Virus record (IMG/VR): IMGVR_UViG_3300045988_183652
Coordinates: 1-64,000 of that record
Source of the DNA: a virus
DNA: 64,000 nt
Reading direction: 5' to 3' (one strand)
Shown here: in pieces, positions 1,465 to 40,649 of the stretch
Numbering within the stretch: position 1 is the stretch's first letter
Layout: every line of letters begins with the position of its first letter
Made by a program: the position numbers and the translations under genes
Notes under the pieces: model-generated
What the model saw: only the letters and a program-made list of their open reading frames with translations
What the model was told of the DNA's origin: nothing
Database searches by the model: none

Positions 1465-1493
1465 TTGACATTATTTTATGTTCGTGCTAATAT
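1465..1493 (+). promoter_or_regulatory. sigma-A-like promoter, family-2 (TTGACA-ttattttatgttcgtgc-TAATAT)
   Basis: Perfect -35 TTGACA, 17-nt spacer, TAATAT -10; same 16-17 nt spacer sequence recurs at 9882, 40621 (+) and 9862, 40458 (-). Confidence 0.55.
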
Positions 1494-1515
1494 GAAATCG
1501 AAGAAATAAGCCCTT

Positions 1516-3828
1516 TTGGGAGCTTTTAACACCTGCTGTGAAAGGTCGTGTTTCCACATTAAACTAATACTGGCTGAAAAGAAACAGCTTGGCGACTTGA
1601 TTGCCCAAGCTATTCCCGGTACAGCACATTATGACCGTGGTGCAACCGTGAAAGGTGAATATGTAATCGTCTGTTCGCAAGGACATCTTCTTTCTCTGAA
1701 GGAGCCTGAGGACTATGATGTCGCGTTTGGGAAATGGGAGTTGTCTGCCTTGCCGATTTATTTCCCGAACTGGCAAACAAAGGTGAAAGAGTATAACGGG
1801 AGAGGCGTGAATCCCAACGAGCGCGTTTCGCGCATTGGGGAGCTTTTGAAGCAGTGTTCCTGTGTAATCCACGCAGGAGACCCTGATGAAGAGGGGCAGC
1901 TTCTTATTGACGAGCTGCTTCGCTGGCACGGTTATCGTGGCCCCGTTTACCGTTTGGCGACGGGCGACACCTCTATCCCTGCGCTGCAGCGTGCGCTCAA
2001 CAACCTCAAGGATAACCGTCTCTTTGAGAACATGGGGTGGTCTGCTTACGCACGGAGCGTTGCCGACCTTATGGTTGGTGTGAATATGAGCCGGTATTAT
2101 TCGCTGGTCAACAATGCTTCGCTGACAGTTGGACGTGTGCAGTCTCCTACCCTTGGGCTTGTGGTCGAGCGTGATATGCTTATCGAAAACCACGTAAAAA
2201 CTAAATACTATGAGGTCTCAGCGAAGACTTCTGTTGAGGGTAAGGTCGTTGAGACGAAGTACAGGCCGAAGAAAGATGACCCTCATCTGACTGACGGGCT
2301 TATCTTGGAAAGACCTTACGCGGAGAGCAAGTCTGCGATGATTTCCGGAAAACAGTTCTCTGGGGCTGCCGTTACAAAAAAGATTTCCAAAGAACAACCG
2401 CCTTTGCCGTTTGATATGCTGGAATTGCAGGGTTACTGTTTGAAGAGTTTCGGCTACAAGCTGGACGACACCATGGAAATCACGCAGTCTTTACGCGATA
2501 ACTACAACGCCATTACATATAACCGTACTCAGGTGCGATATCTCCCCGAAAACTACTTTGCGGAAGCTCCCGCCACCTCCCGTACCGTTATCGCAAACAT
2601 AAACACGGTAGGAAAGGGAAATTTCAACCCTATTCTTGGTATGGACTTCAAGACGAAGGGGCGGTGCTTCGACGATTCTAAAATTGAAGCGCATTTTGGT
2701 ATCATTCCTCAAAATGTGAATCTCGACCTCAACAAGATGACGGAGCGGGAACGAAACGTATATCTTGCCATTTGTAAGTATTATCTTATCCAGTTCTTTC
2801 CGCCCGCTGAGAAGGAAACAACAAAGCTGGTCGTCCCGCTACCGGACGGCGCCACTTTAGAGGCGTCCAGCACTGGTGTGCTGAAACCTGGTTATCTCGT
2901 GATGATGCGCGAAGGTGTAGATACGCCCACAGCGTTGAGTATGATACCCGCCGGCAGTTACGATGCTTTTATTTCCGACGCTCAGGTCTTAGAGAAGGAA
3001 ACAAATCCCCCTCCTCGTTACACACAGTACACGCTGGCGAAGGATATGAGCCGTATTGCCAAGTATGTTACAGACCCATTCATCAAGAGCACTCTGCTGA
3101 AGAAAGATGCCGACGTGGAGGAGAATAACGGGGCTATCGGCACCAGCGCAACACGGGACCAGATAATCTCCGGTCTCATTTCAAGAGGGTTCTTGCAGGA
3201 AAAGGGGAAGTCCCTTATTTCCACTCCGCTTGGACGCGAGTTGTATCGCATTCTCCCCGATTCCCTTCGTGGACCGGACCTCACCGCCTTGTGGTGGGTC
3301 ATCCAAGAGGAGATACATGAGGGAAAGGCGACGCCGGAGAAGCTGGAACAAAATGTTCTGGCTATGCTCAAAGATTTCCTGCAGCAACCGCATCCTAAAG
3401 TGGACCCCAACATTGTCCCGACAAGGAAGGGATTCACGCCGATAGGAGTCTGTCCTCGCTGTGGTGGGAACATCATAGAGGGGAAAATGGGCTTTGGTTG
3501 TTCCAACTGGAAGAGTGGATGTAAGTTTACAATCTGGAAAAAGCCAAAACCAACCCTGTTCCAGCACATCACATTCACAGAGAAGGATGTCAAAAACTTC
3601 CTCGCCGGAAAACCTGTCCATAAGACGAAGCTGACCAAGAAGGACGGCGGTACATTTGCGGCAGACCTTGTGATGGATGACAGTCAGCGCAGTGATTGGG
3701 GCCCGAACTTTACGCTTCAGTTCAACAGCACCAAACCCGCAGGAGCCTCCTCGCGCTCTGGTGGTCGTTCCGGTAGTCGCAGTACGTCGCGTGGTTCTTC
3801 GCGGAGTCGGCGCTCTGGACATCGGTGA
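1516..3828 (+). CDS. topB: DNA topoisomerase III (type IA) with C-terminal zinc ribbon and RGG/SR-rich tail
   Basis: N-terminal Toprim-like motif (ILAEKKQLGDLIAQAI), a long type IA topoisomerase core, a C-terminal CPRCGG...GFGCSNWKSGC zinc ribbon and an SRSGGRSGSRS tail. No canonical start codon lies in frame between 1516 and the conserved ILAEK motif, so the true start is uncertain. Confidence 0.8.
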   Translation: MGAFNTCCERSCFHIKLILAEKKQLGDLIAQAIPGTAHYDRGATVKGEYVIVCSQGHLLSLKEPEDYDVAFGKWELSALPIYFPNWQTKVKEYNGRGVNPNERVSRIGELLKQCSCVIHAGDPDEEGQLLIDELLRWHGYRGPVYRLATGDTSIPALQRALNNLKDNRLFENMGWSAYARSVADLMVGVNMSRYYSLVNNASLTVGRVQSPTLGLVVERDMLIENHVKTKYYEVSAKTSVEGKVVETKYRPKKDDPHLTDGLILERPYAESKSAMISGKQFSGAAVTKKISKEQPPLPFDMLELQGYCLKSFGYKLDDTMEITQSLRDNYNAITYNRTQVRYLPENYFAEAPATSRTVIANINTVGKGNFNPILGMDFKTKGRCFDDSKIEAHFGIIPQNVNLDLNKMTERERNVYLAICKYYLIQFFPPAEKETTKLVVPLPDGATLEASSTGVLKPGYLVMMREGVDTPTALSMIPAGSYDAFISDAQVLEKETNPPPRYTQYTLAKDMSRIAKYVTDPFIKSTLLKKDADVEENNGAIGTSATRDQIISGLISRGFLQEKGKSLISTPLGRELYRILPDSLRGPDLTALWWVIQEEIHEGKATPEKLEQNVLAMLKDFLQQPHPKVDPNIVPTRKGFTPIGVCPRCGGNIIEGKMGFGCSNWKSGCKFTIWKKPKPTLFQHITFTEKDVKNFLAGKPVHKTKLTKKDGGTFAADLVMDDSQRSDWGPNFTLQFNSTKPAGASSRSGGRSGSRSTSRGSSRSRRSGHR

Positions 3829-3921
3829 TGCTGCATCATAGTTGACATTTTAACATAGTCTATGGTATAGTACAAGTGTTCTATTCTACAAAGATGTACC
3901 AGAACATTTGTTCAAGATGCT

Positions 3922-3969
3922 TGTTATTTACCTGTGATTTCCGATATAAATAACAAGAATCTTGTTATT
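3922..3969 (+). promoter_or_regulatory. promoter with 21-bp perfect palindromic operator
   Basis: TTGTTA (-35, 3922) - 18 nt - TATAAA (-10, 3946) overlapping the perfect inverted repeat AATAACAAGA-a-TCTTGTTATT (3949-3969). A half-site copy GCTTGTTATTT lies at 3920. Confidence 0.5.
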
Positions 3970-4006
3970 GTGCTATACCCCGTTCAAAACATTAGGAGGT
4001 GAACCA

Positions 4007-4555
4007 TTGGACGGGCGAACCCATACTTTTGCCGGATACACGGCAGGATTACTTCTTGTGCAGGCACAAATCTTCGGAGCATTTGGACTTCCGGCGCCGG
4101 ACGGCATTCTTCCGTGTGTCGGAATGGTTGGACTGTCCATGGCGGGCTCCCTCGCGCCTGACATAGACCTTCCGCGTAGCAGAGCAGGACGACGCAATAG
4201 ACCCGTGTCCGCTGCCGTAAATGCTCTTTTTGGGCATAGGGGTATTACCCATGCGCCCTTCATTTGGGCGGCGCTGTACGCGGCCTTGAAGCTGCTCTTG
4301 GGTGCTGAATGGTTGACCTATATCCTTGCGTTTGTTATTGGTGGAGCAACTCATATTTTGCTCGACCTTTTCAATAAAGCCGGCGTTCCTTTGCTTTGGC
4401 CGATATCCCATCGCTTCTGGATATTCGGTATAAAGACGGACAGTGCTGCTGGTCACGCATTTTCTTTTGTATTGGCGTGTGTCGCAGTTCTTTGTACCAT
4501 CAATTTCTTCTACGAAGCCGGCGACTACTTAAAGGAGGCGATTTGGTTTGTTTGA
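4007..4555 (+). CDS. DUF457 / YdjM-like membrane-bound metal-dependent hydrolase
   Basis: TTG start at 4007 with AGGAGGT RBS 7 nt upstream (ORF track start 3962 is upstream of the RBS); polytopic hydrophobic protein with a THILLDLFNKAGVPLLWP motif typical of DUF457. Confidence 0.6.
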   Translation: MDGRTHTFAGYTAGLLLVQAQIFGAFGLPAPDGILPCVGMVGLSMAGSLAPDIDLPRSRAGRRNRPVSAAVNALFGHRGITHAPFIWAALYAALKLLLGAEWLTYILAFVIGGATHILLDLFNKAGVPLLWPISHRFWIFGIKTDSAAGHAFSFVLACVAVLCTINFFYEAGDYLKEAIWFV

Positions 4556-5258
4556 CGCTACAACAACAAAGTCTGAAAACGCACAATGGGGTGAGCGCAT
4601 GGCGACGTATATTGCGCTGATGCGGTGGAACGGCTACTCTGTGCAGGAAATTGCTGATACCTTTGGCATTTCCCGGCAGCAGGTGTATCTGCATCTGCAG
4701 AAGATTCCTTTTCCTAATGATAAGGCCAAAAGGTATCCCCGTCCCGCACTGAATGAAGAGCAGGTAAGGTCTGTGGTCGGTTTTTTTGTCGCGAATAAGG
4801 ACGCGCCCATATCCGCCGCTTCAGAGACAACGGGTATTCCTGTTGCGGATGTTGTGATGCTTTGCAACAATATCCGTGGCGCTCATTCGTGGTATTTCAG
4901 CGAGGGTTATCCTCTCATTGCGGATTATCTGAACAGGGAGGGAGTTACGCTTGATTATCTGGAACAGATGGCTGGCGTTCAGGGACTCGCACAGTATGTT
5001 TTTTCCACATACCCTTACAAGGAGATGCCGAAGGCTCGTGCTGCTGCGGTAGCCGCAGTAATTGACGTTCCCGCAGACAAGCTGATGGAGGTGGCTGTTG
5101 CGTCCGGAAATATGGCCACAGGTGTGGCAACATCGGATGAAATGGCATTGGTCATCGGCTCAGTAACCGGACGCGAAGCGAACTCGCGGCTCTTTTTCCG
5201 TGGACGCCGTATCAAACCTTCTTTCTCTGCAACTGGAGGTGGTTCTTGTGGTGAATAA
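4548..5258 (+). CDS. hypothetical protein with putative HTH (YSVQEIADTFGISRQQVYLHL)
   Basis: TTG start with AAAGGAGG RBS 9 nt upstream; overlaps the stop of the upstream gene by 8 nt (operon). Confidence 0.5.
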   Translation: MFDATTTKSENAQWGERMATYIALMRWNGYSVQEIADTFGISRQQVYLHLQKIPFPNDKAKRYPRPALNEEQVRSVVGFFVANKDAPISAASETTGIPVADVVMLCNNIRGAHSWYFSEGYPLIADYLNREGVTLDYLEQMAGVQGLAQYVFSTYPYKEMPKARAAAVAAVIDVPADKLMEVAVASGNMATGVATSDEMALVIGSVTGREANSRLFFRGRRIKPSFSATGGGSCGE

Positions 5259-5781
5259 ATCTGAGCCTGACCTCCAGAGCGATATCGTCGCCGATACTCG
5301 CGATTATCCTGAAGCTCTGCAGCGCCTCACGATGAAGGGAATCTTGATGGCCGGTGCCATTGTGGTTATCCTCATTGCAACGCTTTGCCTGCAGAAGTCC
5401 GAATTGAAGGCAATGCTTCCCTTTGCCGGCGTTATCCTCTTGCTGGCAGGATATGTTGTCTATTCTGCCCTACACTTGCGAACAGAATGGCAGAATGGGG
5501 ACATCGTGTGTCATATTGCTTTGTGCCGCTCTGTGCGGTCTCGGTCATGGCCACGGGACAGCAAAGAGGTTGTTTTTGTAACAGGGGAAGACGAAGGTCA
5601 AGAGGCCCATGTGTTTAATCTTCCTGACCGCAAGAACAAAGACCTGTATCCCGGCTTTAAGTACACCATCTATGTTCGTGCAAGAGATAATACGCATCTC
5701 TTGGCCTACAAAGAAATCTATGTGCCTTCCGATGCGAAGGACACAGAAGAAGTCAAGTCGGAGCTTTCTTCAGAAAAGTGA
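5200..5781 (+). CDS. hypothetical membrane protein
   Basis: ORF with two predicted TM helices. The true start is probably downstream, at GTG ~5250 or ATG 5332, because the 5' end overlaps the previous gene. Followed by a terminator. Confidence 0.4.
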   Translation: MDAVSNLLSLQLEVVLVVNKSEPDLQSDIVADTRDYPEALQRLTMKGILMAGAIVVILIATLCLQKSELKAMLPFAGVILLLAGYVVYSALHLRTEWQNGDIVCHIALCRSVRSRSWPRDSKEVVFVTGEDEGQEAHVFNLPDRKNKDLYPGFKYTIYVRARDNTHLLAYKEIYVPSDAKDTEEVKSELSSEK

Positions 5782-5782
5782 A

Positions 5783-5850
5783 AAAAGCCGGCCTACGGGC
5801 CGGTTTTTTGCGTTTAGAAGAGGCCTTGCCTTGTGGCAAGACCTCTTTCG
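5783..5850. terminator. two back-to-back terminator hairpins between convergent genes
   Basis: AAAAAAGCCGGCC-tacg-GGCCGGTTTTTT (5783-5812) and GAGGCCTTGCC-ttgt-GGCAAGACCTC (5817-5848). Confidence 0.6.
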
Positions 5851-5861
5851 TGTTGTGAAAG

Positions 5862-6308
5862 TTAATTGAAAAAGAAGGGCCTTCCGATTTCTGCATCCTC
5901 CTGAGGTTCAGACTCTTCCGGAGTAAAGGCGTTTTCCGGCGTATTGGCCTCGTTCACAAGGCCATCATCGCTGTCCTCGTCTTCTGTGGCTTCCGCTGCA
6001 ACAGGGGTCACGCCCCAGTTGAGAATAGCCTCATCCTCCTCGGACAGTGCAATACGCTGCCTTTCAGCGGTATCGCGGATTTTCTTGACCATTTTTTCGC
6101 GGAAGTTTTTCATGGCGGACTGGATACGTGTCGCGGCCTGTTCATCTACAACGATAGCAGGCTTTTTACGGCTTTTTGCCGATACCGTAAAGGCGTTATC
6201 CTTTGCAGCGATATCTAACATCGTATTGATGTCTGCGACTGCTTTTAGTCCGTCTGAGACCTGCTGGAGTGCCTGCTGCTGCTTGGAATCACTGATAATT
6301 GCGGGCAT
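5862..6308 (-). CDS. hypothetical acidic protein
   Basis: 148-aa ORF, last gene of the minus-strand operon 9853->5862. Confidence 0.45.
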   Translation of the reverse strand: MPAIISDSKQQQALQQVSDGLKAVADINTMLDIAAKDNAFTVSAKSRKKPAIVVDEQAATRIQSAMKNFREKMVKKIRDTAERQRIALSEEDEAILNWGVTPVAAEATEDEDSDDGLVNEANTPENAFTPEESEPQEDAEIGRPFFFN

Positions 6309-6331
6309 GATTTATCTCTCCTTTTCTTTTT

Positions 6332-7018
6332 TTAGTTAGCGAGTGCGGTATCTGTCTCAGTATCGGCGCCTTCAATGACCGCGCTCATATCTGCGAGGTA
6401 GTAAACATCCGCTGCCTTGTCGTAGTTGATGTGTGCGATAAAGCTGCCAAGGTCTTCGCCCGTAGCCTTATCACATACGCGGATTGTCAGCGTTTCATTG
6501 CCGTTATATCCATCCACAAGAATGGAGTCCTGCCACGCAACACCGAATTTGTTTACATCGCGGTAGGTCGCGTCAATTCCCAGCACATCGTCATACCAAG
6601 TAAAGGCTGCAATACTGTTGGTATCCATTGTGTAAAAATCTTGCCGCTTGACCGTTGCGTATTCTTCCGGCATAAAGTATAGGGGATATGTCGTACGCTC
6701 GCACTTGATATAGAACGCCGCACCGTTGGGGTCGTTGCAGGTGGGATTCAAGTAGATGGCGTTGACGCCGGCATCCTTGTCGCCCATACCCAGCGTGACC
6801 TCATAGCCGGATTCCAGCGTACAGCTCAACTTGATGTCGTTGCGGTACTTGCCATCCCCGATATATCCTTGGGAGTCCTCTTCACCGTCGGGGATGGGTT
6901 CGGGATTTTCGAGGTTGTACTGAGGTTCGCCGGTGTCCTCATCTTTATCTTTCTTTCCACAGCCCACAATGGTCAGAGCCATAAGCACGGCCAGAGTCAA
7001 TGCGATGAACTTCTTCAT
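6332..7018 (-). CDS. lipoprotein
   Basis: Signal peptide MKKFIALTLAVLMALTIVGC with lipobox (IVGC) then a K/D/E-rich linker. Confidence 0.6.
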   Translation of the reverse strand: MKKFIALTLAVLMALTIVGCGKKDKDEDTGEPQYNLENPEPIPDGEEDSQGYIGDGKYRNDIKLSCTLESGYEVTLGMGDKDAGVNAIYLNPTCNDPNGAAFYIKCERTTYPLYFMPEEYATVKRQDFYTMDTNSIAAFTWYDDVLGIDATYRDVNKFGVAWQDSILVDGYNGNETLTIRVCDKATGEDLGSFIAHINYDKAADVYYLADMSAVIEGADTETDTALAN

Positions 7019-7041
7019 ATAGGATTCCTCCTTACGGATTT

Positions 7042-8535
7042 TTACTGTACGGGGTTCGTGTTCTGAGGTGCGGTATCACCGCAGAGCACGCGGTCTACAA
7101 ATTGGCAGATGTTGAGCTGTGCGGCGCGTTCGGGAGTGTTTGCTTCCAGCTCCTCCAGTAGCTCCACGGTCGTAACCGTACCGCTGGTAAGTGTTGCATC
7201 TGCACCAGTGACCATGGCTGCGTCATACACGGTTGCAGCCTTTTCTGTCATACGGAATCTTACGATGGAGGGAACCATTTTTGCGATGCTAACATGGTTT
7301 TTCACATACTGTGTCAACTCGCCCTGCGGGATTGCTCCCAGCTTGGCATAGACATCAAACAGCAGCGTTCCGTCGGCGTTCAGGAGGTCGCTTACCACCG
7401 CATTCAGCTTAATGGTTTCATGCCTCCGGTTATGCTCGTCCTTATCGCTGATGGTGTACTCGATAGTGGGGTCATCCGCATAGAGTTCCTCGCGCAACGC
7501 GGGGTTGTTGTCGTCCACTGTGCGATTGATGGTAATGACAGCCTCGCGTCCAAACATGAGGAAGCTGGTATCCGTTTCCCACAGATAATCTCGCACATCT
7601 TCCTCATCAGTGGCCAGCCAAGGGTTGACGGCAACTGATGTTCCTCCTGTGCTGTTTACACTGAACTGGTCGATGCGGAGAATTTGACCGGCGCCGATAT
7701 ATTCAGTCGCGTATTTTCCCACCACAGTGGATGCCATGTCCACATTACACAGCTTGGAGCCAATGGCCACAGCGCAGTTGTAGACGTCGGCAGGAATGGT
7801 TGCTACGGCAAGATTATCCTTAGAGAACTGCGTTCCCGGCAGTATATCGTCTGTGACCTGAATCACCTGCACGCTATCTCCATGAACGTAGGACGTGGAA
7901 ACTGTCGTTCCATCAGAACGCTGGAGCGTCGTGGGGTACTGAAACCCGATAGGTGCAGAGCGGTTGGCCAGCGTGGTGTAGACGCAGAAGACAATAGCGG
8001 CACCGGCAATGATAGCTGCAGCAGGATAAACGACCTTTTTCAGAAACCGCTTCCCTTTACTTACAGGGACCATGCTCGTTCCTGCCGCATCACTTGCGGA
8101 TACGTTCTTTTCCGCCGGTTTGCGCTTCTGCTGCTTTTTCTGCTCCTTTTCCCGCAGTCTCTCGGCCTTCAGCCGTTCTTCCTCCTGCCGCTTGAGCTCG
8201 CGCCAGTCGGGGGTTTCTGCCGTGCCTGAGCTGGGCGTGTCGGTGCTGTGAGTGGGGGATTCCGTGCTCCGAGAGGCTTCCTTTTTCTCAGGTGCGGAAG
8301 GGGGCGCGTCGTCGCCGCCGTTTGCAGCGGGAACAACGATAGTCGTCTGCTTCTTTGCGCTACCAACGCGGCCAGTCAGCTCTCCGTCCTCCCTGCACTC
8401 GTAGAAGCGACTATTGGCGTCATCGAAATATCCGGTACAGATATTCCCAGCACCCAGCTTAAACTGGCGCTTAGGCAGCTTTTTGATTTGTGCGACTTCC
8501 TCAGCAGTGAAAGTCCATGTGTTATCTCTCGCCAT
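7042..8535 (-). CDS. membrane-anchored hypothetical protein (single mid-protein TM, K/E-rich charged region)
   Basis: 497-aa ORF in operon; coiled-coil-like KRQEEERLKAERLREKEQKK segment then TM helix AAAIIAGAAIVFCVY. Confidence 0.5.
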   Translation of the reverse strand: MARDNTWTFTAEEVAQIKKLPKRQFKLGAGNICTGYFDDANSRFYECREDGELTGRVGSAKKQTTIVVPAANGGDDAPPSAPEKKEASRSTESPTHSTDTPSSGTAETPDWRELKRQEEERLKAERLREKEQKKQQKRKPAEKNVSASDAAGTSMVPVSKGKRFLKKVVYPAAAIIAGAAIVFCVYTTLANRSAPIGFQYPTTLQRSDGTTVSTSYVHGDSVQVIQVTDDILPGTQFSKDNLAVATIPADVYNCAVAIGSKLCNVDMASTVVGKYATEYIGAGQILRIDQFSVNSTGGTSVAVNPWLATDEEDVRDYLWETDTSFLMFGREAVITINRTVDDNNPALREELYADDPTIEYTISDKDEHNRRHETIKLNAVVSDLLNADGTLLFDVYAKLGAIPQGELTQYVKNHVSIAKMVPSIVRFRMTEKAATVYDAAMVTGADATLTSGTVTTVELLEELEANTPERAAQLNICQFVDRVLCGDTAPQNTNPVQ

Positions 8536-9520: not shown

Positions 9521-9853
9521 TTAAATGATGCTCGTGAGCCAACCGAGAACAGTGTAGAAGATGCTCGGTACGAGGAAATAGAGTCCGGCCAGAACAGCCA
9601 GAATGGTCAATACAACAGACAGTCCCTTTTTCACTACTTTCCGCGCCGCATACAGTGCGGCAATGAGAATCAGCAGACTCGCGATTTGTGCGGGGGTAAG
9701 GGTCAATACCCAAACTTTGATACGTTCAAAAATATTGACAAGTTTTTCAAGCATAAAATACCTCCGTTGGCAGGTTCCCGCCACAGCCACATTCCCTAAA
9801 GACCGTGGCGGGACTTGCTTTTCTACATTTTCTATATTACCATATTCGAACAT
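9521..9853 (-). CDS. small membrane protein
   Basis: 110-aa ORF with two TM helices; first gene downstream of the minus-strand promoter at 9833-9862. Confidence 0.4.
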   Translation of the reverse strand: MFEYGNIENVEKQVPPRSLGNVAVAGTCQRRYFMLEKLVNIFERIKVWVLTLTPAQIASLLILIAALYAARKVVKKGLSVVLTILAVLAGLYFLVPSIFYTVLGWLTSII

Positions 9854-9910
9854 AATGTCAAGCGAAAAGCACCATGTAGACTTGACATTATTTTATATTC
9901 GTGTTATAGT
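9833..9910. promoter_or_regulatory. divergent family-2 promoter pair
   Basis: Minus strand: TTGACA-ttatgttcgaatatgg-TAATAT (reads toward 9853). Plus strand: TTGACA (9882) - ttattttatattcgtgt - TATAGT (9905), reads toward the nuclease/flotillin operon. Confidence 0.5.
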
Positions 9911-9952: not shown

Positions 9953-10741
9953 ATGGTAAAGAATAATAACAAGAAAAACAACGGCACGAATGCCTTGCGA
10001 GGGCTCCTCGCTTTCCTTGTTGCCCTTGCTGTGTTTCTCGGAGTGGAACTCATTCCGCAGCTCACAGAGAACCTTGGCTCCGACAACCATCTGTCGTATA
10101 CAGAAGCGTCTGATATCTACGAGGGGAGTTATAAGAGCCGGCTTTCGTTAGACGACATTGCTCCATTTGACGGGGAGCCATATATCGTTGTAAACGGTAA
10201 TGTTCCATTTTTTACAGAAGCTGATATAACCACAGAGCCGTTCGAATTGTTTTCCGAGTTGGACGACCTTGGCCGCTGCGGGACTGCCTACGCAAACGTG
10301 TGTCAAGAGTTGATGCCCACGGAAAATCGAGGGTCTATCGGCATGGTAAAGCCATCTGGCTGGCAGCTTGCCAAATATGATTTTGTGGACGGCAAGTATC
10401 TTTATAACCGCTGCCATCTGCTGGGCTACCAACTCACAGGCGAGAATGCCAACGTCAAAAACCTCATCACCGGAACCCGTTACCTCAATGTAACTGGTAT
10501 GCTTCCGTTTGAAAATGAAATTGCTGATTACGTTCACGAGACAAACAACCATGTGCTTTATCGTGTGACTCCTGTTTTTGAAGGAGATAACCTTGTGGCG
10601 AACGGCGTCCTGATGGAAGCTCTCTCCGTAGAGGATGATACCATTGAGTTCTGTGTGTTTTGCTATAATGTGCAGCCCGGTGTCAAGATTGATTACGGCA
10701 CCGGCCTCAACTGGGCGGATGCGGACTACTCCGCTGATTAA
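9953..10741 (+). CDS. EndA-like DNA-entry / DNA-RNA non-specific endonuclease (Endonuclease_NS_2-type), membrane-anchored
   Basis: N-terminal TM anchor, then NRCHLLGYQLTGENANVKNLITGTRYLNV...VLYRVTPVFEG. This matches the DRGH...N.xP.T..LN...YRVTPVY signature of EndA-family nucleases. Confidence 0.65.
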   Translation: MVKNNNKKNNGTNALRGLLAFLVALAVFLGVELIPQLTENLGSDNHLSYTEASDIYEGSYKSRLSLDDIAPFDGEPYIVVNGNVPFFTEADITTEPFELFSELDDLGRCGTAYANVCQELMPTENRGSIGMVKPSGWQLAKYDFVDGKYLYNRCHLLGYQLTGENANVKNLITGTRYLNVTGMLPFENEIADYVHETNNHVLYRVTPVFEGDNLVANGVLMEALSVEDDTIEFCVFCYNVQPGVKIDYGTGLNWADADYSAD

Positions 10742-10764: not shown

Positions 10765-12201
10765 ATGTTTGACCTGCTCTTTGGGAACAAGGCTGTTCTC
10801 ATTCCCGCAATTATCGTGATTGCGGTCCTCATCATCTGTATTCTGGGGTACATTAAGGCGCCGCCCGATATGGCATATATCGTCTCAGGTCTCCGTAAGA
10901 AGCCCAAAATCCTTATCGGTCGTGCCGGCGTTCGCGTTCCGTTTCTGGAGCGCGTCGATAAGCTAATTGTCCGTCAGATTTCCGTGGACATCAAATCCGA
11001 TGGCTACATTCCCACACTGGACTTCATCGGCGTTGATGTGGATGCTGTCGCTAAGGTCCGTGTTCGGACGGATGATGAGGGCATTAAGCTGGCTATGCGG
11101 AACTTTCTGAACATCACCGATGCCCGTGGCTTCGAGCAGGCGATTTCGGACTCTCTGCAGGGAAACATGAGAGAGATTATCGGTACTATAACGCTCAAGG
11201 AAATCTGCAATGACCGTAAGAAATTCGGTGATGAAATCCAGTCAAAGGCGCAGGTTGACATGAATGCGTTGGGTATCGAGATTATCTCCTGTAATATCCA
11301 GCGCGTGACCGACGAGAAGGGCCTTATCAATGCTCTGGGTCAGGATAATATGAGTCAAATCCAGAAAAATGCTTCTATCGCCAAGGCCGAAGCGGAGCGC
11401 GATATCCAGATTGCTCAGGCGGAGGCGGCTCGTCAGGCGAACGAGGCTCAGGTCGCATCCGATACACAGATTTCTATTCGTAAGACCGAACTGGCCGTGA
11501 AGCAGGCCGAGCTGAAGGAGACCTCCGACATCAAGAAGGCTGCTGCCGATGCTGCCTATAAGATTGAGGAACAGAAGCAGCGCCGGAGCCTCGATATTGC
11601 ATCTACCGATGCCGACATTGCGAAGCGCGAGAAGGAAGCAGAACTGGCCGAGCGTGAAATTACGCTGCAGGAGCGTCGGTTGGATGCTGATATTCGCAAG
11701 AAGGCAGATGCCGATAAGTACGCTGCCGAAAAGAAGGCCGAAGCAGAGCTGTACGCCCGCAAGCAGGAAGCCGAGGCCAAGCGCTTCGAGCAGGAGCAGA
11801 TTGCCGAAGGTATCAAGGCCGTCGGTGCCGCAGAAGCCGAGGCTATCAAGGCCAAGGCTCTGGCCGAAGCGGAAGGTATCGACCGTAAGGCTGAGGCCAT
11901 GAAGAAGTACGGTGAAGCCGCAGTGGTCGAGATGATTATGAACGCACTGCCCGAAATTGCCAAGAACGTGGCCGCGCCTCTCACTAATGTGGATTCCATC
12001 ACCATGTACGGCGAGGGTAACAGTACGAAGCTGATTGAGGACATCGTTTCCTCTACCACTCAGGTCTCCAACGGTATGCTGAACGGTCTGGGTATCGACC
12101 TGCGGAGCCTGCTGGCAGGTTTTGTCGGTGGTAAGGTTGCAGTTCCCGCATCTGCTTCCGGTGTTGAGCCTACCGCTACCGCTGAGGGCGATGCCGAGTA
12201 A
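10765..12201 (+). CDS. flotillin-like SPFH/band-7 protein
   Basis: AAGGAG RBS; N-terminal TM hairpin + SPFH domain + long EA-rich coiled coil ([22 protein letters not shown]...) + C-terminal flotillin domain, like Bacillus FloT/YuaG. Confidence 0.8.
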
Positions 12202-12327: not shown

Positions 12328-12343
12328 CCAAAAGTAAAAAATA

Positions 12344-12477
12344 AGTACGGACGGTATAACCGGAATTAACGCCTGTGGAGATGCATGGTCATCGTGGAAG
12401 CAGGAATACTCTGTTAGCTGGTCATTCATGTGAGAGATGATGTCAGCACTTTTAGGGAACTGAATATGCCTGTGTCG
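12344..12477 (+). ncRNA. conserved ~135-nt array-leader / putative scaffold RNA element, copy A
   Basis: AGTACGGACGGTATAACCGGAATTAACGCCTGTGGAGATGCATGG...GGAATACTCTGTT..GCTGG..GTGAGAG...GGGAACTGAATA, shared at ~85% with copies at 43010, 44159, 45545 and more divergently 12711. Starts immediately 3' of tRNA-Ser. Confidence 0.5.
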
Positions 12478-12635
12478 GGTGTATGAAACCCTGAAAAAGC
12501 AGTGGTGTATACCATCAACGCAGTCCCATTAGAGTGCCGGAGAGGTATATAAAGCCCCGAAATAGCAGGGTTGTATACCATGTTGACTACGGGAATCACA
12601 GTATACAGGGCCTTAAAACAATAGGGTTATACACC
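12478..12635 (+). CRISPR. CRISPR-like mini-array A (3 degenerate 36-nt repeats, spacers 30 and 21 nt)
   Basis: Repeats at 12478-12513, 12544-12579 and 12601-12635, consensus GGTATAyAnnnCCCnGAAAnAnCAGGGTTGTATACC. Each repeat is an imperfect hairpin (GGTATACA...TGTATACC). Confidence 0.45.
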
Positions 12636-24888: not shown

Positions 24889-24890
24889 CG

Positions 24891-34035: not shown

Positions 34036-34056
34036 TTTTACATCTCCTTTCTTCCG

Positions 34057-34326: not shown

Positions 34327-34897
34327 TTTCGGCTTGCTCCTTTCTTCTTCCAACGGTGGCTGCGGGGTACGGTGTGGCCCGCTTGTTGTTGCTGTCCATG
34401 ATTCGCATAACATGGACAAGCATCTCGGAATATGCCCTGTGCATGGTTTCATACCGCGCACGCCATGTATTATCATCATTGTCGTTCACGCGAGCACTCA
34501 GCCCCATGCTGTAGTACAGCGCGGCGTCGATGTCTACCAGCTCCGCTTCAGTCAGGTGGCAGATATAGGCTCCCAGCTCATTGACAGAAACTGCCATCGG
34601 CTGCTCGCACAGTGCTGTGCTTGGGCGGCTCGTGCTCGTGATGAGTACATGGGAGGGCTGCTGCATCTTTGGAGATGATGTCGTAAATACGACCTCCACT
34701 ACACTGCTGTAGCGGTTCAGGTCATCCGAAGATACAACGATTGCGGGACGATGCCCTCTGATAACAGAGCTATTGGAAGGATGTCCGTCTTTATCGCGGA
34801 ACTGACTTCCTTCCGGGGCCCAAGGGGAAAAGATTTCGATTTCTTTCGCATTGACCCAAAATACATCGCCCCTGCGGATATTTCCATTTCTACCCAT
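34319..34897 (-). CDS. MazF/PemK-like endoribonuclease toxin with ~75-aa C-terminal extension
   Basis: RRGDVFWVN...GHRPAIVVSSDDLNRYSSVVEVVFTTS matches the PemK/MazF fold signature. Confidence 0.5.
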   Translation of the reverse strand: MGRNGNIRRGDVFWVNAKEIEIFSPWAPEGSQFRDKDGHPSNSSVIRGHRPAIVVSSDDLNRYSSVVEVVFTTSSPKMQQPSHVLITSTSRPSTALCEQPMAVSVNELGAYICHLTEAELVDIDAALYYSMGLSARVNDNDDNTWRARYETMHRAYSEMLVHVMRIMDSNNKRATPYPAATVGRRKEQAENE

Positions 34898-35105
34898 AGA
34901 TTCTTGTCTCCTTTCCTTCAGAATTGGTTACACACGACGGAATGCCGAAAAAAGACAGAACCGCTTTAAGCGGCTCTGTCTCCATGCAGTCGATATGACA
35001 CTGCTTGTTTTCGTAGGGTGCCTCGACATATTCTTCGCCAACCTCAATGGGTTCGTGGCAAATGCAGCATTCGCCGGCGTAACGAATTTTCTTTTTTACT
35101 TTCAC
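34890..35105 (-). CDS. small zinc-ribbon protein (candidate cognate antitoxin/partner)
   Basis: 71 aa, CCICHEP...CHIDC; overlaps the MazF-like start by 8 nt. Confidence 0.35.
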   Translation of the reverse strand: MKVKKKIRYAGECCICHEPIEVGEEYVEAPYENKQCHIDCMETEPLKAVLSFFGIPSCVTNSEGKETRIYG

Positions 35106-35323
35106 AATGAATTTACTCCTTTCTGCCGTTGGCCTATTGTTGCGATTGCTTGCCGGCGCCGTCTTTCACAGAGTTTTCGCTGCTCTTCGATAGCTTCGCG
35201 AGCCTCCGCAATACACTGCTTCGCACGCCTATCCTGTTCAGAAGAGAAGGAAGCGTAGCGTTCGGAGTAGACGGAATCCATACGCTCGGCTCTCTCAATT
35301 AACTCATACAGCGGTGTAGACAT
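35102..35323 (-). CDS. small hypothetical protein
   Basis: 73 aa, coiled-coil-like. Confidence 0.35.
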   Translation of the reverse strand: MSTPLYELIERAERMDSVYSERYASFSSEQDRRAKQCIAEAREAIEEQRKLCERRRRQAIATIGQRQKGVNSL

Positions 35324-35339
35324 AGCTTCTCCTCCTCGT

Positions 35340-35612
35340 TTATTGAATGTTCATGCCTACGGCGCGAGGACCTTCTTTGGACCAAGTTTCCTTGAGCCAG
35401 TGATAGGTGATTGTGCTATCTTCGGGACTCTTGTCTGGATAGCAGGGGAGGTATGCTGCGGAGTACAAATCTCTGCACTGACTGAAATACACATGATTCC
35501 AGTCAGCCCACACATCGCCAAGAGAACGGATAGCTCGCTTGAACGACCGAAAGCTCTGCGGCGTGTGAACTACGATGGCATTTGCTCCGTTCCACTTTCC
35601 ATTCCACATCAT
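35340..35612 (-). CDS. small hypothetical protein
   Basis: 90 aa. Confidence 0.35.
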   Translation of the reverse strand: MMWNGKWNGANAIVVHTPQSFRSFKRAIRSLGDVWADWNHVYFSQCRDLYSAAYLPCYPDKSPEDSTITYHWLKETWSKEGPRAVGMNIQ

Positions 35613-35875
35613 TGCGCTTCACCTCCGCGATACGAAGGCCTCCGCTTGGACCTGAACGGCGGCATTATCGGTGCGTTGTAGCTTGTCAACTCACCCGTCA
35701 TTTTGACAGGCACACACTGGAGCAATCCGCGCTGTTTTCGATACTGGTGAGCCAAGTTGTTGCGAGCCTGTTTCTCAGAAACCGCCATAGTCGTCCCGCC
35801 CCACTTATTTGTGGTAATGTCGTCATAGACACGAACGGGGCCGAGATAGCTGAAAACCATTTTTGCCTGTGCCAT
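35609..35875 (-). CDS. small hypothetical protein
   Basis: 88 aa; first gene after cassette M4. Confidence 0.4.
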   Translation of the reverse strand: MAQAKMVFSYLGPVRVYDDITTNKWGGTTMAVSEKQARNNLAHQYRKQRGLLQCVPVKMTGELTSYNAPIMPPFRSKRRPSYRGGEAQ

Positions 35876-35919
35876 TATGTTTTCTCCTTTCTTATTGTGT
35901 TTGTAATGTAAAAAAATAT

Positions 35920-36058
35920 ATAAAAAGACAGCTATCCCTGTTTTGGGATAACTGTCTTGAATACTTGGTGTGACTGGAAGCGGAGATAAGTCTCCTTATA
36001 AAAATATCTTCGTAATTATACTATTATACTACCACAATTATTTATAATGTCAACAATA
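35920..36058 (-). promoter_or_regulatory. promoter + leader-hairpin cassette M4
   Basis: TTGACATTATAAATAATTGTGGTAGTATAATAGTATAATTACG; GGAGACTTATCTCC; AAGACAGTTATCCC-aaaac-AGGGATAGCTGTCTT + U-tract. Confidence 0.55.
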
Positions 36059-36062
36059 GCAG

Positions 36063-36095
36063 AGAAAAAAGAGGCGGCTTTCGCCTGCCTCTTTT
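36063..36095. terminator. bidirectional terminator
   Basis: AGAGGCGG-ctttcgcc-TGCCTCT + T7. Confidence 0.55.
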
Positions 36096-36096
36096 T

Positions 36097-37269
36097 TTAC
36101 CTTATTTCCTCGGAGTATTGTGCCATCCAGCAGTCGCAAAGGGCTTCCGCTACGACCTCACTTCTATCGTTATCGTCAGAAATCATCAGGATTGAAGAAA
36201 GGGCTGACCGCATACCTTCATCAAGCGTGAACTCCCTCTCGTTTCCACTTTTATCTGGGACATTTGTTCGAGCAAGCAGCGTCGAATATTTCGTATAATC
36301 AGGGGAAATGAAATAGTCCACAGCCGTGTCAAGGCCAATACTCAGCATCATAAGATTGCCGGTCGTTCCCATTGGTTCTTTCTTTCCGGACTTCTTCTCC
36401 GGTCTCATAAGAGTTCCGTTCTTGTCAAAGAATATTGCCCTATCTGACTTTTCAAATGTGTCTACAGGAACGCTAAAGCATCTGATTGCCATGTTCTTAA
36501 AAGGAGCACTGGCGTCTTCGCCGAACAGTGAGGAAGCATTACAGCAGTCATTTTCCATCTTCTCGTTAAGCCGCTTTATATAAAGCTCCTGAAAATCAAT
36601 GGGAGCACCTGCGCTGTCCGCGTATACGTAGTTTTCTGGCTTTTTGCCGTCTGCCGTTTCCCTTACCATGTACTGCTCGTACTGCTTGCACATTTCTTTA
36701 ATCTTAACTTGTATCCGCAAGGAATCGGAAAACGGAACTGCTGAGATTTGGGAGAAAAGGGAGGAGTAGTTATGAGGGAGGTGGATGGGCGCACACTCAT
36801 CTCCGAATAAGACTTTTTCGCAGGACTTGTCAAGGAAAAAGTATGAGGTTTTGTAAAGACCTTCAACAGACGCATAAAACCCTTCAGGCAGCCGTCGCGT
36901 CTGCTTGCCGTCTGCTGGAGGCGAAATGCGTAACTCAAACGGTCCCACAGAGGTAAGCGCACCGTCCTCAGGCTCCTTGAGGCGCGACATTTTAGTTGCG
37001 TCCATGCCGATTTCTGCACCAATTTGCTTCACATTCCATTCTCCATAGACACGTGGCATTTTGGTAATGGCAAACAGCTCTTCGTACACTCTCGCGGAAA
37101 CAAGCCTGCGTACCAAAGTAAGCTCATCGCTGAATTCGGCATATATTCCGAGCATTTCCTTGTAATTCAATTTTTCCGACTTCTCGGCGGAAGAGAACCG
37201 CGTATTGAGTTTTGTCGCCCATTTATTGCAGTCGATATATGCGTTGACTGCACTATCCTTTTTTCTCAT
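36097..37269 (-). CDS. hypothetical protein
   Basis: 390 aa, last gene of the RecG operon. Confidence 0.45.
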   Translation of the reverse strand: MRKKDSAVNAYIDCNKWATKLNTRFSSAEKSEKLNYKEMLGIYAEFSDELTLVRRLVSARVYEELFAITKMPRVYGEWNVKQIGAEIGMDATKMSRLKEPEDGALTSVGPFELRISPPADGKQTRRLPEGFYASVEGLYKTSYFFLDKSCEKVLFGDECAPIHLPHNYSSLFSQISAVPFSDSLRIQVKIKEMCKQYEQYMVRETADGKKPENYVYADSAGAPIDFQELYIKRLNEKMENDCCNASSLFGEDASAPFKNMAIRCFSVPVDTFEKSDRAIFFDKNGTLMRPEKKSGKKEPMGTTGNLMMLSIGLDTAVDYFISPDYTKYSTLLARTNVPDKSGNEREFTLDEGMRSALSSILMISDDNDRSEVVAEALCDCWMAQYSEEIR

Positions 37270-38234
37270 TTGTTTTCCTCCTTAAAGTGTTCAAGTCTTT
37301 CGGAAAACTTTTGCAGCGCTTTTCTAAACTCAATTTTGCAGGTGGTTGACATGAAATAATAGGCGGAAACAATATCTTCTGTCGTAGAGTTTTTCGCATA
37401 AAGTCGCATTGTGCTTGGCATCCCCATGAGCCAGTGTAAAGAGACGCCAAAGGCAGCCGCTATATGCGGCAGAATTCTTTCGTTGCTTGTGGAGCAGGAG
37501 GGTCTCACCAACATGATATTCGCCAACTCGTGAATGACATCCTTTTGTTTATCATCTAATTCAAAATTGCCTTTTCCGGACTGAATCAATTCATCCAAAT
37601 CGAGAATATCCTGTCGCTTAAATGAACATCTATGGGAAAAAACGTACTGTACTCGCGCAGAAGGGCGCAGCAATAAGCTGCGTTTTTTATCATCCCAGAA
37701 TTGATGTATCCACATCGTATCAATCATGCCGAGAGCTGACTCTCTTATGCATCCGTCTCTTATCGTTTCTGGAAAGCTATCTACAAGATTATAGACTTCT
37801 TGAACATCTGGCGGCAGGCTGCTGAAAGCTGGAAAGTTTTTATCTCCGAATCGAATCATTTCCTCGTAAGATATGTCCAACTCGGCAAGAATCCGAAAAA
37901 CGATTTGCCAGTTAAATCCCTGCCAGCCTATAAATCGCTGTGTTTCTCCGTTTGTAATGGGAGTTTTATCAAATAAAAGGGCTGGCAGCTTTTCTTCTGG
38001 ACAATTAAGCTGTTCGGCTAACCGCAGCTTTTTCATTTCTGCCCTGTATGGCGTGGTGTCTGTGATAATGTTGTTTACTCTTGCCATGTTGCCTGCATCC
38101 TCCGCAATTCTTAATTTGCGGAGGAGCAGGACTATAGAGGTATAGACAGTTGTTGAGACGTTTTCTCCGTACCTTATATCGTCTCCAGCTCGTGCCGGCT
38201 TTGTAGGATTTGTTCTTTTATAAATAGCACTCAT
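37266..38234 (-). CDS. hypothetical protein with C-terminal XRE-type HTH
   Basis: VIHELANIML...ERILPHIAAAFGVSLHWLMG resembles a Cro/C1 HTH; 322 aa. Confidence 0.45.
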   Translation of the reverse strand: MSAIYKRTNPTKPARAGDDIRYGENVSTTVYTSIVLLLRKLRIAEDAGNMARVNNIITDTTPYRAEMKKLRLAEQLNCPEEKLPALLFDKTPITNGETQRFIGWQGFNWQIVFRILAELDISYEEMIRFGDKNFPAFSSLPPDVQEVYNLVDSFPETIRDGCIRESALGMIDTMWIHQFWDDKKRSLLLRPSARVQYVFSHRCSFKRQDILDLDELIQSGKGNFELDDKQKDVIHELANIMLVRPSCSTSNERILPHIAAAFGVSLHWLMGMPSTMRLYAKNSTTEDIVSAYYFMSTTCKIEFRKALQKFSERLEHFKEENK

Positions 38235-40306
38235 TTTCTTGATGCCTCCTTTGCGGTATTGTCGGTCTCCTGACCTCCCGCGATTATGGAATCGACCATT
38301 TTGCAGGAACCTTTTCCTCTGTTCAAAAGTGTCTTTGCGTCCTCCTTTGCCTGTTCGTACTCAGCGGGGTATGCCATCATAAGGGTCATATATCGGTTCC
38401 ATCCGGATTGTTCTGTGCCGAGAAAATCTCCGGCACCTCTAATGCGGAGGTCCGCCTCTGCAATTTCAAACCCGTTATTGGTCTGTACCATGGCGTTCAG
38501 TCTCTCCATCGCAGCCGGCGTGGGCGCCGCGCCTGCTTCCAGCACACAATAGGACTGTACGCTGCTCCGCCCTACACGCCCTCTCAACTGGTGCAGACTG
38601 GAAAGCCCGAAACGGTCCGCGTTTACAATGACCATCATTGTCGCGGTAGGGACATTTACGCCAACCTCCACAACGGTTGTACTGACAAGCACATCTACTT
38701 GACCATCCTTGAAGCGCGAGAGAATGTCCTCCGTTTCTGTCTTTCCCATCTTGCCTGTTACTGTTTCGATGCGGACGCCATACGGTTCCAGAACAGAACG
38801 GTATTCTGCGCTGACTTCCTCGACAGACTGTACGCCTTCCAGCTTCTCGCTTCTATCAATAAGCGGACAGACAACATAGGTTTGATACCCCTTTTGTTTC
38901 TGCAGCAGAATGAAACGAAAGATTTTTTCTTTACTTGTGGCAATACCGGTAATAACCGGAAGACGTCCGTCCGGCATCGTTTTAATGGTGTGGAGTTGTA
39001 CGGTATCCCCATAAATTACCTGAGCCAAACTGCGGGGGATGGGGGTGGCAGACATAGTAATAGAATGAACACCGCCTGAAGCCTTTTCGATGAGCGCTGT
39101 ACGCTGGTCAACGCCAAACTTGTGTTCCTCATCCGTTACGGTTAAGGCGAGATTTTTATACTCCACATCTTCTCCAATGATGGACTGTGTTCCAACAATG
39201 AGTTGTGCCTTGCCTTCCTTGATGACGGCCAAGGCTTTTTTCTTTTCGCTCGTCTTCAAATCGCTGCCAAGCCAAACAACACTTACGCCAAACGGTTCCG
39301 CCAGAGCAGAGAGGTCCTCGTAGTGCTGACGCGCCAACACCAGCGTTGGGGCCATCACCGCTGCCTGATACCCATTCTCAGCCATGGTCATCATAAGGCA
39401 GAAGGCGACGATACTCTTTCCACAACCGACATCACCCTGCACAAGCGCGTTGATGCGATGCCCGTCTGCTGCAAATTGAGTCATGCTCTCAATCGCGTCC
39501 ATCTGGTCTTTTGTGAGAGAATAGGGCAGGGACTTCTTAATCTTTTCAATCCAACCGTTTGTTTTGACGGAGAATTGGCTACCTTTAGAAATCTTTCGTG
39601 CGGCCCATTCGTTAGCCATAGCAAAATATACGAGGTCTTCCTGAAGGAGTCGGGATTGCCCGTCCTTAATATCCTGCTCGGAAACGGGGAAGTGCAGCTT
39701 CTTGAGTGAAGTCCAAAGGCTTGAAAGACCTTTTTTGTCGAGGAAATCATTGGGAAGCGTTTCAATAAGTCCGATAGTTCTGTCGGAAGCCTCCTGAATC
39801 TTTTCTCTCAGGTAGGCATCGCTCACGCCTCCGATTTGAGCGTACACAGGACGAATGCCCGGTGCCTGCCCATAGGCAGGCTCGAAAATCTCCGGTGCCG
39901 TCATGGTGTAGTTGTTGTATTTCTCGCTGTATCCGACCTTTCCGGCCACATAAACCTCCTGCCCTGTGCAAGTGGAAATCTTGCGGAAAAGGTAGTTTTG
40001 CCGGAACCATGTAATAACGAGTTTTTCTCCGCTCGGAAGCACCGTGCAGTGTGCGATAATCATAGGGACATGGGAGGAAGTCTGCACATAAGAACCCTTA
40101 TAGCGCAGTTCTTGGCCGAAGGACTTCACTTCGTCTACGCGCACAAGACAAGCCTGCTCCGCACCATCTATGAGATGCGTTGCAAGCTGCCGGTAGTCCT
40201 TATAGCTTTTTGGGATATAACGCAGAAGGTCTTCTGCTGAGTGGATACCTTTTTTCTCGAAACGCTTTTCCTTTTGTGCGTTTACTCCAATGACGGATAG
40301 CTTCAT
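38231..40306 (-). CDS. recG: ATP-dependent DNA helicase RecG
   Basis: Start set to ATG 40306 (MKLSVIGVNAQKEKRFEKKGIHSAEDLL...) with GGAGGTGA RBS. Wedge/OB N-terminus, Walker A GDVGCGKS, DEEH box, helicase C motifs. Confidence 0.8.
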   Translation of the reverse strand: MKLSVIGVNAQKEKRFEKKGIHSAEDLLRYIPKSYKDYRQLATHLIDGAEQACLVRVDEVKSFGQELRYKGSYVQTSSHVPMIIAHCTVLPSGEKLVITWFRQNYLFRKISTCTGQEVYVAGKVGYSEKYNNYTMTAPEIFEPAYGQAPGIRPVYAQIGGVSDAYLREKIQEASDRTIGLIETLPNDFLDKKGLSSLWTSLKKLHFPVSEQDIKDGQSRLLQEDLVYFAMANEWAARKISKGSQFSVKTNGWIEKIKKSLPYSLTKDQMDAIESMTQFAADGHRINALVQGDVGCGKSIVAFCLMMTMAENGYQAAVMAPTLVLARQHYEDLSALAEPFGVSVVWLGSDLKTSEKKKALAVIKEGKAQLIVGTQSIIGEDVEYKNLALTVTDEEHKFGVDQRTALIEKASGGVHSITMSATPIPRSLAQVIYGDTVQLHTIKTMPDGRLPVITGIATSKEKIFRFILLQKQKGYQTYVVCPLIDRSEKLEGVQSVEEVSAEYRSVLEPYGVRIETVTGKMGKTETEDILSRFKDGQVDVLVSTTVVEVGVNVPTATMMVIVNADRFGLSSLHQLRGRVGRSSVQSYCVLEAGAAPTPAAMERLNAMVQTNNGFEIAEADLRIRGAGDFLGTEQSGWNRYMTLMMAYPAEYEQAKEDAKTLLNRGKGSCKMVDSIIAGGQETDNTAKEASRK

Positions 40307-40428
40307 ATATGTTCTCACCTCCGTATGGTGGGAAAATGTCAGGGTGTCGGGGTGCTTTTCGTGAACTACTCGGCAATAAATCACCGAGGATTCTTGCTTA
40401 CTTCTTATAAAGAGGGCTTACACACCCT

Positions 40429-40458
40429 TATTATAAACACGAACATAAAATTTTGTCA
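40429..40458 (-). promoter_or_regulatory. family-2 promoter driving recG operon
   Basis: Minus strand: TTGACA-aaattttatgttcgtgt-TTATAAT. Confidence 0.5.
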
Positions 40459-40620
40459 AGTGCGTTAGAGAGAAAATTTACTGGATGTCAACCTTTATTC
40501 TTTTGCATATTCGTTATTATTGCCAACTATTTTTTCGTAAAATACAGCTTGCTTTAGTTTGCGCGGCACGCTTTGCGGCGTATAAACTCGCGGTATAGCT
40601 TTTTTTACTGATAATTAGAC

Positions 40621-40649
40621 TTGACATTTTTATATGTTCGTGTTAGTAT
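40621..40649 (+). promoter_or_regulatory. family-2 promoter driving the long leader + tRNA cluster
   Basis: TTGACA-tttttatatgttcgtgt-TAGTAT. Confidence 0.5.

Follow-up and report, generated by a model that had tools for sequence, protein, structure and literature searches.

Comparison with described systems

Repeated motifs within the core promoters of mobile elements are well precedented, and a new instance, carried by an undescribed and widespread gut element, is presented here. It lies in a DNA stretch of 64,000 nucleotides (positions 1 to 64,000 of IMG/VR virus record IMGVR_UViG_3300045988_183652), the whole of which is referred to as the window. In it, promoters of several operons have in common their -35 hexamer and most of the spacer behind it; these promoters with the shared spacer box are called family 2, and a separate, larger promoter family of the same element is called family 1.

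A described counterpart is SPBRE, a 15-bp motif in the promoter regions of about 10 SPbeta operons, to which MrpR (YopR) binds according to ChAP-seq and electrophoretic mobility shift assays (PMC10516654). SPBRE was found in silico and only 24 years later shown to be the site of the master repressor (PMC10516654). The likeness to family 2 is that of a short repeated motif at the promoters of several operons on a large Gram-positive mobile element. The binding protein is known for SPBRE, however, whereas the box described here is fixed inside the spacer and in part doubles as a putative extended -10 element, and the two sequences do not resemble each other. On IncP plasmids (RK2), KorA and KorB coordinately repress replication, maintenance and transfer through operators that lie within the core promoters of numerous operons. 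Those operators are palindromes bound by dimers, while the family-2 box is asymmetric and belongs to a Gram-positive host, and no Kor homologue was seen.

Two further comparisons concern the promoter itself. Voskuil and Chambliss reportedly described in 1998 a Gram-positive -16 region of the form TRTGn-TATAAT. In family 2, CGTGn stands directly before the -10 hexamer of the promoters at 1465, 9882 and 40621, and TGTGG takes the same place in family-1 and Pusillibacter promoters; the differences are that the first base is C here and not T, and that only the last 4-5 spacer bases are covered. The early promoters of T4 and T5 are likewise sets of host-polymerase promoters on one mobile genome with likeness outside the hexamers. 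T4 PeSL cassettes pair a stem-loop terminator with a promoter, and such a shared upstream stem-loop is present in family 1 but absent in family 2. Since the upstream flanks of family-2 promoters are unrelated to each other, a PeSL-type terminator-promoter cassette was rejected for this family.

Four promoters share a spacer box

Exactly four sites in the window match TTGACANNATTTTATGTTCGTG with at most 3 mismatches, at 1465 (+), 9882 (+), 40459 (-) and 40621 (+). Against these four, 0.01 matches are expected, and none of 100 shuffles gave four, which rules out a chance origin. All four are intergenic and lie upstream of co-oriented genes, namely topB, a nuclease gene, recG and a tRNA array. 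The -35 hexamer is a perfect TTGACA in every copy, the -10 hexamer has the form TAnnAT or TATAGT, and 11 of 17 spacer columns are invariant, giving the consensus ACTTGACA-wwwTTTTATrTTCGTGy-TAnnAT. The four copies score 33-36 bits with R1, a profile made from their sequences alone.

The topB promoter (1463..1493, +) is made up of AC, the -35 hexamer TTGACA at 1465-1470, the 17-nt spacer TTATTTTATGTTCGTGC and the -10 hexamer TAATAT at 1488-1493 (35.7 bits). In the nuclease promoter (9880..9910, +; 33.6 bits) the -35 hexamer at 9882-9887 is followed by the 17-nt spacer TTATTTTATATTCGTGT and TATAGT; the genes behind it are the nuclease (9953-10741), a flotillin (10765-12201) and tRNA-Ser. On the other strand, the recG promoter (40430..40461, -; 32.8 bits) has its -35 hexamer at 40459-40454, an 18-nt spacer, AAATTTTATGTTCGTGTT, and TATAAT at 40435-40430, and precedes recG (38231-40384) and then two genes of unknown function (37266-38234 and 36097-37269). 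The tRNA-array promoter (40619..40649, +; 35.0 bits) combines a -35 hexamer at 40621-40626, the 17-nt spacer TTTTTATATGTTCGTGT and TAGTAT, and is followed by a leader of about 310 nt and the tRNA array at 40960-41500.

A first-pass annotation of the window had proposed six copies with an invariant spacer of 16-17 nt, among them two divergent pairs. It listed five, of which four are true members with spacers of 17, 17, 18 and 17 nt; no clear sixth copy was found, and the fifth, a minus-strand promoter divergent from 9882, is missed by profile R1 even at E<=10. The starts given there as 9862 (-) and 40458 are correctly 9861 and 40459. One divergent pair (40459-/40621+) is genuine, whereas in the other (9861-/9882+) only 9882+ belongs to the family. 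The combination of a consensus -35 hexamer with a near-identical spacer thus holds beyond chance for four copies and does not extend to 9861-, whose spacer differs.

Profile R1 also recovers orthologs in two related genomes (L014 and L006) and a strong extra member outside the window, all at 24.7-33.3 bits, and finds no family-1 promoter. The extra member, TTGACA-TTTTTTTATAATCGTGC-TATTGT (28 bits), stands before an adhesin operon, 9.1 kb to the left of the window; the 10 kb to the right hold family-1 promoters only and no family-2 member. Two weaker sequences lie inside the window. A weak relative at 1186..1214 (-), ACTTGACA-AAATTGTGTAATCGTGG-TAGAGT, reaches 16 bits (E=0.003 with the profile) and is divergent from the topB promoter, upstream of a gene for 188 aa (392-958). 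The half-member at 49079..49109 (+), ACTTGTCA-TTTTTTTATGTGGGTTG-TATAAT, with its -35 hexamer at 49081, scores 13 bits and precedes the serine recombinase gene (49158-50735); it has only the 5' half of the box in common with family 2.

Transcription from the four promoters is predicted to start near 1500, 9917, 40423 (-) and 40656. All four members carry a G there, seven bases downstream of the -10 hexamer. GTP initiation in Firmicutes ties promoter activity to the GTP level, and family-2 promoters would initiate with GTP if this G is the start. At topB (window 1516-1561), the called TTG start codon follows the predicted start of transcription by only about 16 nt; the gene's true start codon is uncertain because the conserved Toprim N-terminus, KLILAEK, does not begin until 1561, behind an in-frame ATT at 1558.

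The box is conserved in one clade of related elements

RecG and nuclease homologs led to relatives of graded distance. In variants about 96-98% identical to the window (L011 and L016-L018), substitutions fall around the promoter cores and none within them, in what is a low-power comparison, and the topB promoter at 1465 is identical in each. At greater distance, the nuclease promoter of L014 (nuclease 80% identical) reads TTTTTTTATGTTCGTGT and has 15 of 17 spacer bases in common with the window; one of the two substitutions goes towards the family consensus, and the DNA between its divergent promoters and downstream of the -10 hexamer is scrambled. In L006 (RecG about 85-87% identical), the recG promoter retains 16 of 18 spacer bases amid intergenic DNA that is otherwise unalignable, and the tRNA promoter retains 13 of 17, where the first ~22 transcribed bases are conserved as well. 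Pooled over L014 and L006, 44 of 52 ortholog spacer bases are identical (85%), against 37-60% of four-fold degenerate sites in the same genome pairs (binomial p = 1e-4 to 2e-7). The spacers of two control promoters, the ydjM promoter at 3842 and the family-1 promoter at 36053, retain only 21 of 34 bases (62%) at the same distances (Fisher p=0.016). As judged from these alignments, the box is shown to be under purifying selection in the clade of the window, and the first-pass observation of unusual spacer conservation is borne out, both beyond neutral expectation and beyond control promoters.

This constraint is seen in one clade only, because the orthologs above are conserved while more distant relatives are without the box. 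In a sister clade (L015, L023 and L026; nuclease 68-79% identical), ACTTGACA, the T-run and the -10 hexamer are kept and the box centre is absent; 7 of 17 spacer positions agree with the window and 9 of 17 among the clade's own members, the centre being variable. L007 (RecG 67%) also lacks the box. For the topB promoter no intermediate ortholog is available, since a TopB homolog search returned nothing between 99% and 56% identity.

The first-pass annotation had named a motif common to unrelated promoters, and hence a mere lineage-specific flavour, as the outcome that would speak against its proposal. A degenerate pattern covering all four copies, TTGACAWWWTTTWTATRTTCGTG, gave 0 matches in the GTDB species genomes (185,579), IMG/VR and the JGI metagenomes, and on 40 kb of a megaplasmid of Pusillibacter faecalis (Oscillospiraceae) the spacers are heterogeneous, which together rule out a lineage-wide promoter flavour.

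Likeness among the family-2 copies runs from AC at -38 to -7 and has sharp edges, beyond which the flanks are unrelated, so that the family is not a larger duplicated segment. The likeness could still have been left, without any shared function, by recent copying or gene conversion between promoters. The copies do sit on one recombination-proficient element (YqaJ, RecD2, SSB), and two of them form inverted repeats 161 bp apart. We nevertheless regard this origin as unlikely: the shared block ends exactly at the promoter edges, unlike conversion tracts, the orthologs are conserved at near-saturated synonymous divergence, and the small sample already shows the central spacer changing more slowly than four-fold sites. 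Moreover, the R position varies between copies and orthologs without pattern, and there is no lineage-specific homogenisation.

Anatomy of the box

Every strict member, be it one of the window's four, the one to the left or an ortholog, is built from ACTTGACA, a T-rich run, TATRTTCGTGy and a variable -10 hexamer TAnnAT, with the box in a fixed register 7 nt after the -35 hexamer. Part of this is general, as all strong intergenic promoters of the element have TTGACA, wwAT or a T-run, and yGTGn before the -10 hexamer. By analogy, the CGTGn at the 3' end of the box is the Gram-positive -16 region or extended -10 element, covering the last 4-5 spacer bases. Three copies (1465, 9882 and 40621) have the corresponding TG at -15/-14; in 40459- it is one base off, because the box there holds its distance from the -35 hexamer, not from the -10 hexamer, across an 18-nt spacer. 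Specific to family 2 are the centre, approximately TTTTATRTT (-26 to -18), the AC at -38/-37 and the 17-nt spacing. The -10 hexamer differs from copy to copy (TAATAT, TATAGT, TATAAT and TAGTAT) while the spacer is nearly constant, the opposite of what selection on polymerase contacts alone would produce.

With hexamers of this kind, family-2 promoters look like sigma-A-type promoters read by the host housekeeping RNA polymerase, and the main rival to the explanation favoured below is that polymerase is all that the box serves. An ancestral strong promoter would have been copied to several operons and its spacer kept for shape or for sigma and beta-prime contacts, setting promoter strength or kinetics with no extra factor. 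In phages T4 and T5, too, strong early promoters are alike beyond their hexamers. This explanation accounts well for the perfect TTGACA, the 17-nt spacer and the TG at -15/-14 in three of four copies, for the register and orientation fixed in every member, and for the fact that CGTGn and the T-run after the -35 hexamer are general to the element's promoters, those of the sister clade included. It accounts less well for a -10 hexamer that is not optimised and varies by copy although the central spacer is kept, or for control spacers that drift between equally good hexamers (62% versus 85%). Furthermore, the sister clade manages with central spacers that are unrelated, and in 40459- the box stays with the -35 hexamer at the cost of a TG misplaced by one base. 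Taken together, we consider a polymerase-only role a serious possibility, albeit a somewhat doubtful one.

A candidate site for an element-specific regulator

The explanation we favour, tentatively and at slightly less than even confidence, is that the family-2 centre is the binding site of an element-specific regulator. The central TTTTATRTT (-26 to -18) is not normally read base by base by polymerase and could be the site for such a protein, which, bound between the -35 and -10 hexamers, would block polymerase. A single protein would then switch topB, the nuclease-flotillin-tRNA-Ser genes, the recG operon, the tRNA array and the adhesin operon together, in a mode analogous to that of MrpR at SPBRE in prophage SPbeta and of KorA on IncP plasmids. 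We read the box in this way because its spacer is more constrained than that of control promoters and is clade-specific, because the -10 hexamer varies around a constant spacer, because extra ATRTTCG heptamers lie nearby, and because SPBRE/MrpR provides a precedent. These heptamers are found at 9842/9853 and 40507, within family-2 intergenic regions. In a fuller form, which is conceivable but which we hold with less confidence, a protein encoded by the element would read an asymmetric box of about 13 nt (TTTTATRTTCGTG) at its fixed place in the spacer and co-regulate topB, recG and the nuclease (genes of recombination and topology), the tRNAs and the adhesins on an extrachromosomal element of human-gut Oscillospiraceae, box and reader having arisen in one clade only.

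A speculative candidate for the factor reading the box is the 236-aa product of 4548..5258 (+), in the topB-ydjM operon, which has an N-terminal helix-turn-helix (HTH) resembling sigma region 4. It matches HTH_23 at 26.2 bits (cut-off 24.6), its YlxM-like matches are weak, and it is conserved in L014. Besides the serine recombinase and TnpB, it is the sole HTH protein detected among the ~70 window open reading frames (ORFs) scanned.

Several points weigh against a regulator's site. Once wwAT or the T-run and yGTGn are removed, the family-specific part amounts to only ~7-9 nt; the box is asymmetric and AT-rich; and no dyad, direct-repeat partner or second half-site was found within family-2 promoters. 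Its single orientation and register relative to the -35 hexamer are what a polymerase-contact element would also show. The tRNA promoter of L006 carries 4 core changes and is still an intact promoter, no k-mer enrichment outside promoter cores survives multiple testing, and no cognate regulator was found within the ~84 of ~181 kb inspected. In addition, the genes downstream of family-2 promoters are functionally mixed, and the transcription starts of these promoters are predicted ones. The embedded operator proposed in the first-pass annotation is thus plausible and gains comparative support, but has to be set against the asymmetry of the box, its single register, the missing cognate protein and the likeness of CGTGn to an extended -10 element.

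The same annotation had offered a sigma- or anti-sigma-specific element as an alternative. Nothing points to a dedicated sigma factor, both hexamers being the housekeeping consensus. It is most improbable that an element-encoded sigma factor, or a sigma-remodelling protein needing the box plus the hexamers, reads family 2, as no sigma gene was found among the ~70 window ORFs scanned and the sister clade has the hexamers without the box. Such a factor would fit the presence of two promoter classes on the element (AC, 17-nt spacer and TCGTGy in family 2; yG, 16-nt spacer, TGTGG-TAGTAT and a leader in family 1), and a relative, L010, encodes near recG a 161-aa protein containing sigma-70 regions 3 and 4.

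Known operator classes were also compared with the box. The Firmicutes SOS box is the palindrome CGAAC-N4-GTTCG with the core GAAC-N4-GTTC; in family 2, TATGTTCG is a perfect half-site only and the second half is missing, so a LexA/SOS (Cheo) box was rejected. A scan for LexA boxes with at most 2 mismatches gave 28 matches in the window against 30 expected, with no family-2 promoter among them. One sequence with a perfect GAAC-N4-GTTC core, AGAACATTTGTTCA, lies at 3901-3914, between the 3842 promoter and ydjM. In E. coli, ydjM is a LexA-regulated gene. Because the number of boxes in the window equals chance, this one is interesting only by its position. A MerR-type operator, with a 19-20 bp spacer and a palindrome, was likewise rejected, the family-2 spacers being 17-18 nt and without a dyad.

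Other promoters and palindromes of the element

The promoter that had been counted as the fifth copy drives a membrane-protein operon (9834..9861, -) and is divergent from 9882+. It reads TTGACA-TTATGTTCGAATATGG-TAATAT with a 16-nt spacer, and shares with family 2 only ATGTTCG, a heptamer that stands 5 nt out of register. It contains a 12-bp near-palindrome, ATATTCGAACAT, and its own spacer is kept at 14 of 16 bases in L014. An exact copy of TATGTTCGTGC at 5671 lies inside a gene, where it encodes I-Y-V-R-A; it was treated as a coincidence, since one of its three third-codon positions is changed in L014.

Two palindromes were seen near family-2 promoters. Between the divergent promoters 1214- and 1465+, GATGTTAC-N8-GTAACATC followed by TTTT occupies 1294-1317; its half-site is like the ATGTTCG core, and either an operator or a small terminator is conceivable. 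The other, at 19928-19979 of L018 and about 9 kb to the left of the window, is a near-palindrome of ~52 bp (TTGACATTATTTTTGATGTGCTTACAATAGCACGATTATAAAAAAATGTCAAG) that holds two overlapping promoters facing each other, one arm being the family-2-like promoter of the adhesin operon.

Family 1 drives the long block of genes on the minus strand. Its promoters have yG before the -35 hexamer and a 16-nt spacer ending in TGTGG; the -10 hexamer is TAGTAT, and the leader behind it, of ~110 nt, is conserved. Their -35 hexamers start at 57522, 36053, 33018, 29024 and 23092 (all -), with further members at 2860 and 8139 of L019. The cassette runs in the order terminator hairpin with T-run, TTGACA-N16-TAGTAT, the ~110-nt leader AGTAGTATAATTACGAAGATATTTTTATAAGGAGAtttATCTCCGTTTT and a second hairpin, whose stem differs between copies by compensatory substitutions. 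Control by attenuation or antitermination is suggested by a terminator-like hairpin so close behind the start.

The carrier element

Gene order identical to that of the window, at 99.9-100% DNA identity, was found on contigs of 77-182 kb from independent metagenome samples. Thus topB, recG, the nuclease and flotillin genes and the tRNAs are part of the element, and the first-pass suspicion that topB, recG and flotillin, ostensibly host genes, belong to it proved right. Three contigs measure 180.5 kb (ERZ27245012 k141_144192), 181.9 kb (ERZ15610057 NODE_95) and 181.2 kb (ERZ28617253 scaffold_38); being independent and so close in length, they suggest a complete element of ~181 kb.

The window encodes topoisomerase III, RecG, RecD2, a YqaJ-type exonuclease, SSB and a non-specific nuclease, as well as YdjM, flotillin, two sortase-like proteins, a PemK-type toxin, a large serine recombinase and TnpB; the element's recombination module is phage-like. 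Five tRNA genes and many proteins of unknown function complete it. Giant SpaA/TED/TQ (thioester/isopeptide) adhesins are encoded just to its left, and relatives encode PcfM, Fic, HicAB, HU, ClpP and a small sigma-like protein. One protein of the element is indexed in 1,116 blocks of a public-assembly collection. No relatives of the element were found in INPHARED, PLSDB, IMG/VR, the GTDB species genomes or the JGI metagenomes: the INPHARED DNA search returned a tRNA match only, DNA and protein searches of PLSDB returned a tRNA match only or nothing, and a GTDB search with the 322-aa alignment of a recG neighbour found no relatives.

The tRNA-Ser matches one on the Pusillibacter faecalis megaplasmid at 92% identity, and the relatives of TopB come from metagenome-assembled genomes of Clostridia and Oscillospiraceae; on account of these two likenesses, the host is probably a member of the gut Clostridia, of the family Oscillospiraceae.

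An Rfam scan detected tRNAs only. At the end of the ~310-nt leader, ARAGORN calls a 79-nt tRNA-Glu(CTC) at 40960-41038, which Rfam does not confirm at its gathering threshold. Repeats of ~240 bp, 81-87% identical, are found at 12337-12582, 43004-43140, 44153-44393 and 45546-45783, the first just after tRNA-Ser and the other three after the tRNA array and TnpB.

Implications

If the box only tunes polymerase binding, the finding is a small addition to known effects of the spacer. The result also shows that host-like genes (topB, recG, flotillin and the tRNAs) are part of the element. Whichever of the two readings is correct, the arrangement of the motif has ample precedent on mobile elements. 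If the box is instead a regulator's site, it would define a compact regulon of a mobile element that is both large and very common in the gut, and a 35-bp oligonucleotide would be a ready bait for the element's master regulator.

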